From: Parcubacteria group bacterium
Lineage (GTDB): Bacteria; Patescibacteriota; Minisyncoccia; Phycocordibacterales; Phycocordibacteraceae
Assembly (NCBI GenBank): GCA_028286505.1
Contig: JAQBRK010000024.1
Coordinates: 1-33,975 of the forward strand
Direction of reading: 5' to 3'
Length of the DNA stretch: 33,975 nt
Below are positions 2,386 through 11,020 of the stretch, piece after piece. The first letter of the stretch is position 1. Each line of letters starts with the position of its first letter. The position numbers and the translations under genes were made by a program. The notes beneath the pieces were generated by a model, which saw nothing but the letters and a program-made list of their open reading frames with translations, searched no databases and had not been told where the DNA came from.

Positions 2386-3348
2386 ATGCCACCCGAGTAT
2401 ACGCTCCCTACCGCCCCGCCTTCTCCGGCTCATCGCATTGTCCGCATCGTAGCTATCGTTATAGCGGTTCTCATCGTGCTTGCGGTAGGGTATTTCTTTT
2501 TCGTACTGAACTATCAGCCGGAGCGCGCTGCAGCTGTTCGGCTTTGGGTCAGTGCGCACGTGCATCAACTCACCGACCCGAAGGAATTGAAGAATGTGGT
2601 CTACGTCCTAGCCCCTCAAGACGGAGGCCGTATATATACCGATGCCAATCCGGGGGCTTCCGCGACGGCATGGAATGTCGATCGCAATAGGACTATCAGC
2701 GATTACGCTCGTGCCGACGGCGCTGCTGCTGCCATTCTCTATACGCGCACGTCGAAGGTCTTCGAAGTTGCCAAAGATATGAAGCCGCTGGTGAGCAGCG
2801 CGAGCTTCAAACGCTCGATAGCGCTCTCACCCGACGGAACCAAGATCGCGTACGCCGAAGCCAAGGGTAATCCGGGGCTGCCGTTCTCGTGGCAGGTCGT
2901 CGTGCTCGATTCGGCTTCCGGCAAGGAATTGTATCGGGCGCCGGGGTTCACCGTGTTCTTCTTGAACGACGGCACCGTACTACGTCTGACACAACAAGGC
3001 GTCGAGCGTACGACTGTCGCAACTAAGGAAAACGCCGTGCTTCTGAAAGATGCGTCGCTTTCACCCGTAACGCGCGTTGCGCAATCAGCTGACCGCTCGC
3101 TGCTTGCGCTTACGGATCCTAAAGACGGCTACACGAAAGTGTATGGGGTATCCGCAACCGGCACGACTGTTGAAGTGAAATCACAACAGTCCATTCCGGC
3201 CGGAGGCAGTATCGCCGTATCGCCGCAATCGGTGTACTGGTTGAGCGCGACCACGAAAGGAAGCGAACTCTGGCACTATCCTCTTACGGGTGGTGACGGG
3301 AAAATGATACGCTCGTCGGACGTGATTGTTACTAAATTGGTATTTTAA
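2386..3348 (+). CDS. membrane-anchored PD40/TolB-like beta-propeller-repeat protein (paralog 1)
   Basis: 320 aa with an N-terminal TM helix (IVRIVAIVIAVLIVLAVGYFFFV). It carries a PD40-type signature KRSIALSPDGTKIAYAEAKGNPGLP…VVVLDSASGKELY. It is strongly similar to 7476-8426 and ends TKLVF-stop. The stop at 3346-3348 is 2 nt before the next ATG. Confidence 0.6.
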   Translation: MPPEYTLPTAPPSPAHRIVRIVAIVIAVLIVLAVGYFFFVLNYQPERAAAVRLWVSAHVHQLTDPKELKNVVYVLAPQDGGRIYTDANPGASATAWNVDRNRTISDYARADGAAAAILYTRTSKVFEVAKDMKPLVSSASFKRSIALSPDGTKIAYAEAKGNPGLPFSWQVVVLDSASGKELYRAPGFTVFFLNDGTVLRLTQQGVERTTVATKENAVLLKDASLSPVTRVAQSADRSLLALTDPKDGYTKVYGVSATGTTVEVKSQQSIPAGGSIAVSPQSVYWLSATTKGSELWHYPLTGGDGKMIRSSDVIVTKLVF

Positions 3349-3350
3349 GT

Positions 3351-8426: not shown

Positions 8427-8428
8427 TT

Positions 8429-11020
8429 ATGATTCGTATTCAACGCAGCCATCTCTCCCTCCTATACGGATTCATTCTTCTAGCTGCATTTACGATGGTG
8501 CCATTCGCAGCTCATGCTGAAAACCAGGACAGCTGTACGGGTATGGGAGGTACCTATTATTCGGATACGGGTGCCTGCGTAATGCCCAGCGGCGGGAGCG
8601 GAGGCGGTGCCGACTATAGCTGGTATAACCCGCAGCCGAGTACCTGTACCGTGAACACCACAAGCGCGACCGTAGGAAGCGTAGTTACCTATACGAACAG
8701 CGTGCAACACGCGACCAACTGGGCAGTCAGCCAGCCTGACGGTTCGTGGACCACAACCACCAGCTACGCTGATGACGAAACGTTCTCGCATGTGTATACG
8801 ACGACGGGTACCTATAACGTCTTTGCAGCGACCAACGACGCGCAATATCTCGGAACGTGTCCGATGGTAACGGTCTCTGCTGCGCCTGTCGTGCCTACGG
8901 CGACACTTGCGGCGTCTCCTGCAGTCGTTTCCTCAGGCGGCTCCTCGACGCTTACGTGGTCTTCGACGGATGCAACGTCATGTACGGGAACCAATTTTAG
9001 CACCGCGGGAGCCACCTCGGGTTCCGTTTCGGTTTCTCCGACCTCTGACACGACCTATCGTGTCGATTGTTCGGGAACGGGAGGTAACGCCTGGGACTCC
9101 CGTGCGGTAACTATCGGAACGGGAAGGCCGGATCTGACGGTGGCTGACGGCGCCAGCGTCTCGGCGACGCAAGGCGTACCGGTTACGCTGTCGCAAACCA
9201 TTTCCAATAATGGAACCGCGAGCACGGGAGGTTCTTTCTACAACTTCATACGCGTGTGTAGCGCTTATTGTTCGCCCTATGATCAATCCGCAGAAGCGAG
9301 TACCGTAGCGCTTGCCGCAGGCGCAAGCCGGGCCGTCTCGTTTCCGTGGACCTTCACGGCGCCGGGTACCTATTATTACGCTCTGTGTACGGACCTGCGT
9401 TCCGGTTACACGGGCGGAGTTATCGATGAATCCGACGAAAATAATAACTGCAGCAATTGGCAATACGTAGTCGTGTCGGCCGTGGCTCAACCCGACCTTA
9501 CCGCCGGAGCAACGACCGTTACCAATTCCATCGCGGGACAGACAACCAGCTTCTCGGGTTCCGTTTCCAATATTGGAACGGGAACGGCGGGAAGCTCGCT
9601 AGCCTACTTCAGCATCGCGAGCGTATCGAACGCCTGGTCTGGCGCTACCGGCAGTATTGCTCCGGGCGCGAGCGCTGCCGTGGCTTCCAGTTACGTACTA
9701 ACTACGCCCGGCACGTATACCGTTACGTTGTGCGCCGACGGCGCGGGGGCAGTCTCCGAAACGAATGAGGGGAACAATTGCGGCGCTCCCACCACCTTCA
9801 CGCTTTATGCGGTTCCAACCGCTACCATTACGCTCACGCCGAGTGCCGTAGCTTCGGGCGGCGCGTCCACACTCTCATGGTCTTCGACCGCAGCAACGAC
9901 GTGTACGGGCACGAATTTCGCGACAGCGAACGCGACTTCGGGATCGGTATCCGTTTCTCCCTCGACGAGTACGGTATATACGCTTTCTTGTACCGGGGCA
10001 GGAGGGAACGCTACGGACACCAAAACCCTTACCATAGGGTCGGCGGCGCTTCCGGACCTTACTGCCGGAGCCGTTTCTCCGACCTCGGCACGAGCCGGCA
10101 GTTCCGCTACCTTTTCGGCAACGATAAGCAATACGGGAGGCGCCTCGACCGGTGGCGCCTTTACGAATCTGCTTCAGAAAGCCGATGATGCCTCGGGTGG
10201 CGGTGCGAGCGATATCGCCACGAAAAGCGTGTCGACCATCGGCGCAAATTCGAGCAGTGTTGCCGCCTACACCTATACGTTCCCCGTCAGCGACGCCGGG
10301 ACCACTAAATACTTGCGAGCGTGCGCCGATAAGAATGCCGCAACAGGAGTGGGAGATATTGACGAGGGAATTGAAACTAATAATTGCGGAGCGTGGACGG
10401 CAATTACCGTAGGCACTGCTTCGCCAGCAGCTCTTTCCTGCACACCATCTCCAGCAAGTACCGACCCGAATCAGAACGTATCCTGGAGAGCGGATCCGAG
10501 CGGGTTCGTAGCCGGAACACCCATCACCTACACGTGGACCGCCATGGGTGGAGCACCTTCGTCGGGTTCGGCTACCGAGGCTACGGGAAGTGGGAATGCC
10601 TTCGTAACCCAGTACCCTACGGGCGGTTCGTATTCGGCAAGCGTGACGGCCACCCAGGGTTCGTTAACGGCAGGTCCGCAATCCTGCACGCCGGTTACGA
10701 TTTCCGGTCCGGTTAATTCCTGCAGCGGTGCGATAACGCCGACCATCTATATTTCTCATAACCGCAGTCGCGTGAATATAGGTGATTCCGTACTGCTCAC
10801 CTACGGCGCAACAGGCATGCCCTCAGGTTCTTGCGTGGTAACGGGCCCGGCCAGTTTTACTCCGATTACGACGGCTGCGGCAGACCCCGCCACCTGCACC
10901 ATCCCTATTGCGGGAACTCAGACCGGAGCAATTACGGCACAAAGTACCTACACCATGACCTGCGGAACAGCCAAGGCATCTATCATCGTGAACATCATTC
11001 CTAAGTTCATCGAATTCTAG
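8429..11020 (+). CDS. large secreted multi-domain surface protein: Cys motif, PKD-like, 3x CARDB-like, 2x Ig-like modules (paralog 2)
   Basis: 863 aa. The signal peptide ends AHA|EN and is followed by ENQDSCTGMGGTYYSDTGAC. A PKD-like motif is present (ETFSHVYTTTGTYN). CARDB-like module ends are DESDENNNCS, SETNEGNNCG and DEGIETNNCG (near nt 9434, 9763, 10368). Two Ig-like modules read GGSSTLTWSSTDATSC… and GGASTLSWSSTAATTC…. The protein ends IPKFIEF-stop. Confidence 0.7.
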   Translation: MIRIQRSHLSLLYGFILLAAFTMVPFAAHAENQDSCTGMGGTYYSDTGACVMPSGGSGGGADYSWYNPQPSTCTVNTTSATVGSVVTYTNSVQHATNWAVSQPDGSWTTTTSYADDETFSHVYTTTGTYNVFAATNDAQYLGTCPMVTVSAAPVVPTATLAASPAVVSSGGSSTLTWSSTDATSCTGTNFSTAGATSGSVSVSPTSDTTYRVDCSGTGGNAWDSRAVTIGTGRPDLTVADGASVSATQGVPVTLSQTISNNGTASTGGSFYNFIRVCSAYCSPYDQSAEASTVALAAGASRAVSFPWTFTAPGTYYYALCTDLRSGYTGGVIDESDENNNCSNWQYVVVSAVAQPDLTAGATTVTNSIAGQTTSFSGSVSNIGTGTAGSSLAYFSIASVSNAWSGATGSIAPGASAAVASSYVLTTPGTYTVTLCADGAGAVSETNEGNNCGAPTTFTLYAVPTATITLTPSAVASGGASTLSWSSTAATTCTGTNFATANATSGSVSVSPSTSTVYTLSCTGAGGNATDTKTLTIGSAALPDLTAGAVSPTSARAGSSATFSATISNTGGASTGGAFTNLLQKADDASGGGASDIATKSVSTIGANSSSVAAYTYTFPVSDAGTTKYLRACADKNAATGVGDIDEGIETNNCGAWTAITVGTASPAALSCTPSPASTDPNQNVSWRADPSGFVAGTPITYTWTAMGGAPSSGSATEATGSGNAFVTQYPTGGSYSASVTATQGSLTAGPQSCTPVTISGPVNSCSGAITPTIYISHNRSRVNIGDSVLLTYGATGMPSGSCVVTGPASFTPITTAAADPATCTIPIAGTQTGAITAQSTYTMTCGTAKASIIVNIIPKFIEF

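Follow-up and report, generated by a model that had tools for sequence, protein, structure and literature searches.

A stretch of 33,975 nucleotides (nt) from a Parcubacteria group bacterium (GenBank assembly GCA_028286505.1, contig JAQBRK010000024.1), referred to over its whole length as the window, carries the same pair of genes twice: a small gene for a transmembrane (TM)-anchored protein, followed by a large gene for a secreted protein of immunoglobulin (Ig)-like modules. Between the two pairs lies a gene for a protein resembling the N-acyltransferase Lnt. This arrangement raises the question of what the two members of such a pair do together. An earlier description made from the letters of the window, called here the sequence-only reading, had seen in the small protein a PD40/TolB-type propeller serving as membrane dock or export partner of its cognate adhesin. 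The reading that we favour after computational analysis, though tentatively, is a sortase-independent module for surface display, with the propeller serving to dock or assemble a large protein tagged at its C-terminus. The module is typical of Parcubacteria-type bacteria of the candidate phyla radiation (CPR) related to Candidatus Kaiserbacteria. The genes in question are the following.

2386-3348, forward strand: small1, the gene of a TM-anchored propeller, its family found by exhaustive HMMER search
3351-5867, forward strand: large1, 838 amino acids (aa), from translation and Pfam
5919-7454, forward strand: the Lnt-like gene, LNT_N plus putative nitrilase-like domain
7476-8426, forward strand: small2, paralogue of small1 (family hidden Markov model (HMM), 8.6e-84)
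8429-11020, forward strand: large2, 863 aa, from translation and Pfam

All five open reading frames (ORFs) were found on the forward strand where the sequence-only reading had placed the duplicated pair, and its account of the junctions was borne out by reading them directly. In both pairs 2 nt separate the stop codon of the small gene from the ATG of the large gene (TAAgtATG and TAAttATG), and the second pair follows the stop of the Lnt-like gene (7452-7454) immediately, with the ATG of small2 located 21 nt downstream and an in-frame GTG at 7455 as alternative start. The term giant, which had been applied to the large partner, was too strong, as 838 and 863 aa make for a long protein, not a giant one. 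Small1 and small2 align throughout with 49% identity (E 2e-102), and their translations both end in TKLVF, as had been noted; the large proteins share 37-43% identity. At the DNA level, the pairs are about 62% identical over 2809-3796 versus 7887-8817, and in the block 2809-2963 versus 7887-8041 31 of 51 third codon positions differ, with 42 of 51 residues identical. Because of this low DNA identity and the diverged third positions with residues kept, the comparison indicates a duplication that is old and under purifying selection, in agreement with the sequence-only reading. The same figures rule out an assembly artefact or a recent duplication.

Relatives of the small protein were collected by exhaustive HMMER search with a profile of the two window copies; 464 representatives fell within E ≤ 1e-3, of which 67 also reached E ≤ 1e-10. 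Among the best 150 matches, 105 are shorter than 400 aa, mostly near-full-length proteins of about 300-325 aa, and the remainder are long multi-repeat PD40 proteins. Word-indexed homologue searches, with small1 alone or a profile of 28 sequences, retrieved nothing beyond the window copies and two members and are too insensitive for this family; a metagenome scan with a four-sequence alignment of the small protein found only an unrelated protein combining TIR and PD40 (L011).

A 72-member alignment of the family was used for AlphaFold modelling of small1. The resulting model has a predicted local distance difference test score (pLDDT) of 93.6 and a predicted template modelling score (pTM) of 0.86. 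It displays a TM helix (residues 14-43), a second helix (residues 45-63) and about 24 strands forming six blades, five of which are complete with four strands. The sixth blade combines the N-terminal strands 72-75 and 83-85 with the last strand, residues 315-319, so that in the model the TKLVF tail common to both small proteins is the strand closing the propeller. A Foldseek search with this model gave 898 PDB matches (E ≤ 0.001), headed by TolB (E 2.4e-9, TMq 0.55), whose entries occupy ranks 1-18 ahead of generic WD40 and YWTD propellers. TolB is also the only family seen when the sequence profile of the small protein is compared with the PDB (E about 0.01).

The single N-terminal TM helix and the TolB-like propeller proposed by the sequence-only reading are thus supported by AlphaFold and Foldseek. 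The PD40 family model, a missing match to which had been named beforehand as refuting, does not reach the Pfam threshold: PF07676 scores 14.0 bits (E 0.05) with small1, against a gathering cut-off of 20.9, and does not match small2, and only 3 of the 72 family members match PD40 at E ≤ 0.01. The basis of the assignment is the fold and not a profile match. Two other propeller models are matched by one family member each, the BamB-type PQQ_2 model and the LpqB propeller model. Taken together, the structural model places the small protein in a distinct, unannotated family of TM-anchored TolB-like propellers of about 310 aa.

The large partners are modular. Both begin with a signal peptide, a Cys loop and a PKD-like module; large1 continues with CARDB, Ig, CARDB, CARDB and PKD, large2 with Ig, CARDB, CARDB, Ig, CARDB and a PKD-like module, and a common C-terminal domain (CTD) ends both. 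The signal-peptide end AHA|EN, the motif EN.DSCT.MGGTY..DTGAC and the module ends C.D…E..E.NNC listed in the sequence-only reading are all present in the translations. The difference in CARDB/Ig order between the paralogues was likewise confirmed by the positions of the Ig-like modules (aa ~328-406 in large1, ~160-227 and ~467-536 in large2). The three CARDB modules postulated for each protein are solid in Pfam, as PF07705 (cut-off 22.7 bits) is matched in three stretches of each, with 103.1 bits (1e-29) in large1 and 112.7 bits (1.1e-32) in large2. For PKD, PF00801 (cut-off 23.5 bits) passes in large1 only, with 26.2 bits (8e-06, aa 658-733); large2 has no Pfam PKD match, although its region homologous to the PKD module of large1 aligns.

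Outside the window, the middle domains of the partners vary among lineages, with CARDB, PKD, fn3 or none recognisable. CARDB, well founded as it is in the window, is therefore not what partners have in common; the conserved feature is the CTD. This domain was traced in an alignment of 12 partner C-termini. In the window it is located as follows.

5586-5864, forward strand: CTD of large1, ending VNVIPVFKEF-COOH (CTD HMM 2.7e-28)
10733-11017, forward strand: CTD of large2, ending VNIIPKFIEF-COOH (CTD HMM 8.6e-29)

The partner CTD is Ig-like and about 90 aa long, with two conserved Cys residues and a strand of the form Q..Y/F.L.C, and the protein ends at a fixed distance. Conservation between large1 and large2 is concentrated at the ends, with 56-65% identity in the CTD and 62-68% in the N-terminal module, against about 40% in the CARDB middle. 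The last residues fit N[VI]IPxFxEF in the window. In the other lineages they read INVIPQFEEF (L012), VNVIPQYSNF and VNVVPQFSNF (L014), VNVVPRFEEF (L021), NV[IV]P[DG][YF]SEF (three in L023), VNVRFDSDEF (L001 and L006) and TTG[GT]IEE[IR] (three in L017). The type of tail is genome-specific and common to the paralogues of one genome. The CTD is covered by no Pfam or NCBIfam model, isolated CTDs match no NCBIfam sorting signal at E ≤ 10, whole large proteins give no relevant NCBIfam match at E ≤ 1, and no sequence relative in the PDB is found for the CTD or for large1.

A Cys...Cys loop with about 4-25 residues between the cysteines lies near the mature N-terminus of almost all partners, no more than about 10 residues from the predicted signal-peptidase site and often followed by a Gly-rich linker. 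It was located at 3465-3530 and 8519-8580 in the window and also in L001, L006, L012, L014, L017, L020 and L021, and from these alignments is a second conserved feature of the partner besides the CTD. The C-termini of large1 (IPVFKEF) and large2 (IPKFIEF) possess no LPXTG motif, hydrophobic segment or basic tail, and a lipobox is absent from the translations of small and large proteins alike. The large proteins lack any other anchor, although the genome encodes a sortase; given the absence of an LPXTG/TM tail, their being sortase substrates is ruled out.

Whether the pair is a unit was examined in neighbourhoods from eleven other lineages, scanned with HMMs for the small family, the CTD and the Lnt-like protein. 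In all 14 pairs in which the C-terminus of the partner is visible (two in the window, four in L017, three in L023 and one each in L001, L006, L012, L014 and L021; 8 lineages), the next gene after the small-family gene encodes a protein with signal peptide and CTD, the 888-aa partner of L017 being assigned by alignment, not by HMM. The co-occurrence of the pair outside this genome, on which the sequence-only reading depended, is thereby established. The partners of L016, L018, L020 and L022 run off the contig but can be seen to start with a signal peptide. The junctions comprise four 2-nt gaps, six 4-nt ATGA overlaps, overlaps of 8 and 14 nt and gaps of 4-10 nt; outliers are one gap of 69 nt and one junction with an uncertain start.

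Most of these loci share with the window the order L25 - SLT - … - L31 - RF1 - S2 - EF-Ts (ribosomal proteins L25, L31 and S2, release factor 1 and elongation factor Ts). Identity to the window is 23-35% for the cassette proteins, compared with 65-74% for the housekeeping neighbours. The pair is also kept intact outside this block. Two extra pairs are found between RF1 and S2 in L023, the pair of L014/L015 is situated between Nramp and nitroreductase genes, and L017 contains three to four tandem pairs (11 kb with four pairs) outside the L25…L31 block. Tandem multiplication is common, with two to four copies of the pair per locus. Beside these genes, L014/L015, from assemblies GCA_964927435.1 and GCA_965094815.1, carry a MASE1 histidine kinase, Ros/MucR and Fic genes at a GC content of 44-49%, which may point to a different lineage. 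Related loci further contain a split transketolase and a type IV pilin; with the sortase of the window, these agree with a CPR bacterium, and the CPR placement in the sequence-only reading is plausible.

Two layouts recur around the pair. The first, in which a lytic-transglycosylase-like gene directly precedes it, is found in the window, L018 and L021, the upstream gene matching SLT_2 at 1.6e-10 in L021 and encoding a 460-aa protein 49% identical to that of the window in L018. The gene of the window is:

970-2328, forward strand: SLT_2 coiled-coil lytic-transglycosylase-like gene (Pfam SLT_2, 5.4e-08)

The second layout, a CTD protein followed by the Lnt-like, small and large genes, is shared by the window, L014 and L020. 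With respect to the lineages involved, one CTD-bearing match carries the NCBI label Candidatus Kaiserbacteria, Parcubacteria group of Patescibacteria. RF1, S2 and L31 of the window show 68%, 61% and 70% identity to their counterparts in the metagenome-assembled genome (MAG) of this match, and 66-80% to those in the other loci.

A candidate promoter element sets the small genes apart. In the window it takes the following form.

2339-2379, forward strand: pair 1, TCCACA box and −10-like hexamer TATACT with 29 nt between them, the hexamer ending 7 nt before the ATG
7425-7465, forward strand: pair 2, TCCCCA box and TATACT, likewise with 29 nt between them, inside the 3' end and stop region of the Lnt-like gene

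The 12-mer TGCGTATACTTA stands before both small genes and is otherwise unique in the window. Generalised over the lineages, the element consists of a (T)TCCACA-like box 40-60 nt before the ATG and about 29-37 nt upstream of a TAnAnT hexamer, with 7-13 nt from the end of the hexamer to the ATG. Of 18 starts of small genes or CTD-only ORFs, 14 have this layout, and both strands of the window together contain the pattern in two places only, ahead of small1 and ahead of small2. A loose version of the pattern is common by chance, with 49 matches overall versus about 98 in shuffles; at small-gene starts, however, it is found in 12 of 17 cases, where about 1e-3 is expected per gene, and this placement is not random. 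Other genes of the window, such as those of L25 and the sortase, have TTGACA, a spacer of 17-18 nt and a −10-like hexamer. A generic scan of 800-11500 for σ70 promoters and terminators yielded no more sites than shuffles and did not detect the element. The arrangement suggests a dedicated regulator or sigma factor together with very short leaders.

The surface-display reading is favoured because a membrane-proximal propeller, an Ig rod translated together with it, conserved ends around a variable middle, the lack of any other anchor and an exact C-terminus come together in one module. Small and large gene would be co-transcribed from their own TCCACA-box promoter and translationally coupled. 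The small protein would be a type-II membrane protein with a short Pro-rich cytoplasmic tail, the TM helix, a helical stalk and the six-bladed propeller outside the membrane. The large protein would be exported by the Sec pathway as a rod of tandem Ig-like modules, with the disulfide loop at its start and the CTD with an acidic/aromatic tail at its end. The propeller might then capture the CTD or its tail as it emerges and hold or assemble the large protein at the membrane surface, leaving the Ig rod to project outward as an adhesin-like fibre that needs neither sortase nor TM anchor. Tandem duplication and fast divergence of the module would provide several variants per genome. Physical binding, the membrane-proximal end of the rod, its function as an adhesin and the participation of the Lnt-like protein are all points that we infer.

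Several observations weigh against this interpretation. Since the loci share general housekeeping synteny, the conserved order is weak evidence in most of them: much of it falls within the syntenic housekeeping block, where adjacency counts for less. CTD proteins without an adjacent small gene exist in L025, in L014 (a 456-aa protein) and in L023 (a 102-aa ORF). Lnt-like genes do not adjoin the pairs in L017, L018, L021 and L023. The divergence of the small proteins correlates with that of the CTDs (r = 0.41, Mantel p ≈ 0.002), but this co-divergence is modest and mostly due to shared ancestry. Finally, within one genome the CTDs are 61-63% identical and the tails genome-specific, whereas the paralogous propellers are only 20-26% identical. 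Like tails with diverging propellers fit a single shared tail-recogniser, or gene conversion at the 3' end, better than pair-specific docking through the tail, and the specificity between cognate partners assumed by the sequence-only reading is weakened accordingly.

Among the solitary CTD genes, that of L025, a Candidatus Kaiserbacteria MAG, is located at 9479-10423 before L31, and this locus has no small-family gene; the module can be partly absent within the clade. The 102-aa ORF of L023 (10001-10309; the same in L024 at 1251-1559) comprises little beyond the CTD and ends …INVIPDFSEF. It has its own upstream element with a CCCACG box and TATACT, lies just before two further pairs and could be a minimal tag-only protein or the remnant of a pair.

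The solitary CTD proteins bear on the first of three other explanations, in which the propeller would serve outside the cytoplasm as a dedicated chaperone or assembly factor that acts transiently, in folding, disulfide formation or polymerisation following Sec export, with the large protein subsequently released or otherwise attached. They agree with such a role, and so do the tight translational coupling, which suggests balanced amounts at the same time and place, and the conserved Cys pairs of the N-terminal loop and the CTD, which need oxidative folding. BamB and TolB, both membrane-proximal β-propellers, act as assembly or scaffold factors, and the PQQ_2 and LpqB matches of single family members recall such proteins. 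However, one-to-one duplication of chaperone and client would be unusual, propellers that diverge faster than any part of the client are odd for a folding factor, and Pfam reveals no enzymatic or chaperone motif in the proteins of the small family. We regard a purely transient role as unlikely, though somewhat less so than the explanations that follow.

The genome-specific tails lead to the second explanation, according to which CTD and tail would serve throughout the genome as a sorting signal for a single enzyme. This enzyme would covalently lipidate or otherwise attach the large protein, and the propeller would be an adaptor that offers it the substrate and not itself the anchor. The most plausible enzyme would be the Lnt-like protein. 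Its LNT_N domain is clear (41.8 bits, 1.6e-10; cut-off 27.1), while the Pfam CN_hydrolase model PF00795, proposed as a check by the sequence-only reading, has no match in it, and the TIGR00546 equivalog model scores 72 bits over aa 99-481, below its cut-off of 132.9. Alignment by hhalign with a canonical Lnt of Kaiserbacteria gave 96.7% probability over 423 columns. The blocks LPEG, K..QGEY and FCxE are invariant in three orthologues that are only 34-37% identical. FCxE aligns to ICYE, the catalytic-Cys region of Pseudomonas aeruginosa Lnt (5n6m), and LPEG and K..QGEY are, as sequence blocks, candidate counterparts of the Lnt Glu and Lys. The protein therefore appears, from its sequence, to be a divergent membrane acyltransferase-like member of the Lnt family; on the display reading, too, it probably assists in the envelope process to which the pair belongs. 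A scan of genome contigs with the Lnt-like alignment found only an unrelated Lnt of Chlamydiae (L010).

The Lnt-like gene, which had been noticed as bracketed by the two pairs, is more than that: it is a recurrent neighbour that in six lineages (window, L001, L006, L012, L014 and L020) immediately precedes the small gene, in L014 outside the ribosomal-gene context. In L014 it is split into ORFs of 206 and 310 aa (7370-7990 and 7987-8919; the same in L015) with a 4-nt overlap, corresponding to the membrane half and the nitrilase-like half. As two independent assemblies agree, sequencing error may not be the cause, and the gene may truly exist here in two parts. Immediately before the Lnt-like gene, L001 (7669-8526), L006 (1492-2355) and L012 (2363-3214) encode a polytopic membrane protein of 283-287 aa without a Pfam match, 31-36% identical among the three loci and with abutting or overlapping stop and start codons in L006 and L012. 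A counterpart is missing from the window, where pair 1 takes that position. L025 possesses a more canonical Lnt homologue with Pfam LNT_N and CN_hydrolase (4895-6484, reverse strand), 3 kb from its CTD gene and on the opposite strand.

A shared sorting enzyme would account for tails that are common to paralogues (window, L023, L014 and L017) while their propellers diverge. The place of the Lnt-like gene upstream of the small gene, the recurring layout behind a CTD gene, the invariant candidate catalytic blocks with their alignment to the P. aeruginosa enzyme, and the lack of a lipobox in the cassette, by which a classical Lnt substrate is not evident, are all in line with it. On the other hand, no Lnt-like gene is found near the pairs of L017 (11 kb with four pairs), L018, L021 and L023. 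Members of the nitrilase superfamily act on non-peptide C-N bonds or transfer acyl groups, and we know of none that processes protein C-termini. The tail has no TM segment, unlike the signals of sortase, exosortase and rhombosortase, and the proteins offer neither a conserved Lys nor a fixed N-terminal residue that could accept an acyl group. Gene conversion could also give rise to genome-specific tails. This explanation is thus improbable, and still less credence is given to its full form, a CPR protein-sorting system in which an Lnt-family acyltransferase and a propeller adaptor would read the CTD/…IPxFxEF-COOH tail and covalently lipid-anchor, or otherwise fix, host-attachment adhesins within a TCCACA-box regulon.

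Least probable is that the two proteins are merely co-transcribed and functionally independent within a fast-evolving surface island between SLT and L31, the propeller being for example a ligand sensor or receptor, since the inherited order of the syntenic block and the unpaired CARDB/Ig surface proteins of the window at 26822-28123 and 30542-33613 would fit such independence, but the pair is retained where it has moved (L023, L014 and the tandem copies of L017), its order is constant with stop and start overlapping or nearly so, and the promoter motif precedes the small gene only.

Comparison of the display module with known systems starts from TolB of the Tol-Pal system, which shares with the small protein the six-bladed PD40-type propeller and is its best structural match. 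The TolB propeller binds its partner Pal and short disordered peptides (the TolB boxes of colicins), and this is the kind of binding proposed here. However, TolB has an N-terminal α/β domain and a soluble periplasmic form with a cleaved signal peptide, whereas the small protein has a TM anchor instead. TolB belongs to a tolQ-tolR-tolA-tolB-pal context, while SLT, Lnt-like, CTD and ribosomal genes are the neighbours in the window and 11 related loci. Its partner Pal is a peptidoglycan-binding lipoprotein, in contrast to the long Ig-rod protein found here, and similarity in sequence is marginal, with PD40 below the Pfam cut-off. No TolB_N domain was found by Pfam in the small proteins or the 72 family members; together with the lack of a tol-pal context, this rules out that the small protein is TolB proper.

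In organisation, the pair resembles the WxL/Csc clusters of lactobacilli and enterococci, which reportedly are paralogous, with several per genome, and are said to combine a small membrane-anchored protein with larger secreted proteins that have a common C-terminal domain and are attached non-covalently and independently of sortase. This likeness is one of organisation only. No cassette protein matches WxL, DUF916 or related Pfam families, the CTD is here Ig-like with the end …NVIPxFxEF, and the small partner is a β-propeller.

A conserved C-terminal element on unrelated passengers, several paralogues and an adjoining candidate gene are also features of the sortase/LPXTG, exosortase/PEP-CTERM and archaeosortase/PGF-CTERM systems and of the CTD of the type IX secretion system (T9SS). 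The tail described here differs from these in having no TM helix or basic cluster and in ending right after the last β-strand. It matches none of the models for T9SS CTD, PEP-CTERM, PGF-CTERM, GlyGly-CTERM and other NCBIfam sorting signals, and its neighbour is Lnt-like, not a sortase-type transpeptidase. With canonical Lnt, the Lnt-like protein shares LNT_N, the aligned Cys block and, putatively, a nitrilase-like domain; it differs in falling below the equivalog cut-off, in having no Pfam CN_hydrolase match and in lying among non-lipoprotein surface genes without a lipobox. The view of the sequence-only reading that no described system shows this pairing holds, as neither a Pfam or NCBIfam model nor a description in the literature searched was found. 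No described system matches the module, which comprises two undescribed families and a divergent Lnt; paralogous display modules with a conserved C-terminal tag are already known as a kind.

Further surface genes lie elsewhere in the window. A sortase gene at 28237-28899 (forward strand; Pfam Sortase, 5.8e-21) has the active-site motif TLVTCD. About 1.6 kb past it, a protein of 1023 aa (30542-33613, forward strand) displays about ten Ig-like repeats with weak matches to the CTD HMM, followed by …LADMPYTGLDLG, one TM helix and an unusual further C-terminal region of about 270 aa; it may be an atypical sortase substrate or have a different mode of anchoring. A third CARDB protein (26822-28123, reverse strand; 4.7e-07) has an N-terminal TM anchor, no paired propeller gene and a long Ser/Asn-rich tail with about seven Cys-containing repeats of the type YDSNGNYCSYGTY. 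Between 29000 and 30457 the GC content rises up to 0.60, and a 483-aa ORF on the forward strand, with a signal-peptide-like start, a Pro/Ala-rich composition and no Pfam match, is mirrored by a 477-aa ORF on the reverse strand. A tRNA gene (15450-15522, reverse strand; Rfam RF00005, 71.8 bits) is situated in an ORF-poor stretch between EF-Ts and a 230-aa ORF.

To our knowledge, little is established about host attachment and recognition in CPR bacteria (Patescibacteria) beyond type IV pili, and the module described here gives specific candidates for these processes. Conservation across the clade, fast evolution, tandem copies, a promoter motif of its own and long Ig rods are what would be expected of a system for host interaction or surface variation. 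Three of its features are new to the databases: the TM-anchored propeller family, the C-terminal tag domain and the promoter box. They provide handles for annotating many hypothetical CPR proteins, as well as a link to a divergent enzyme of the Lnt family with no obvious lipoprotein substrate nearby.

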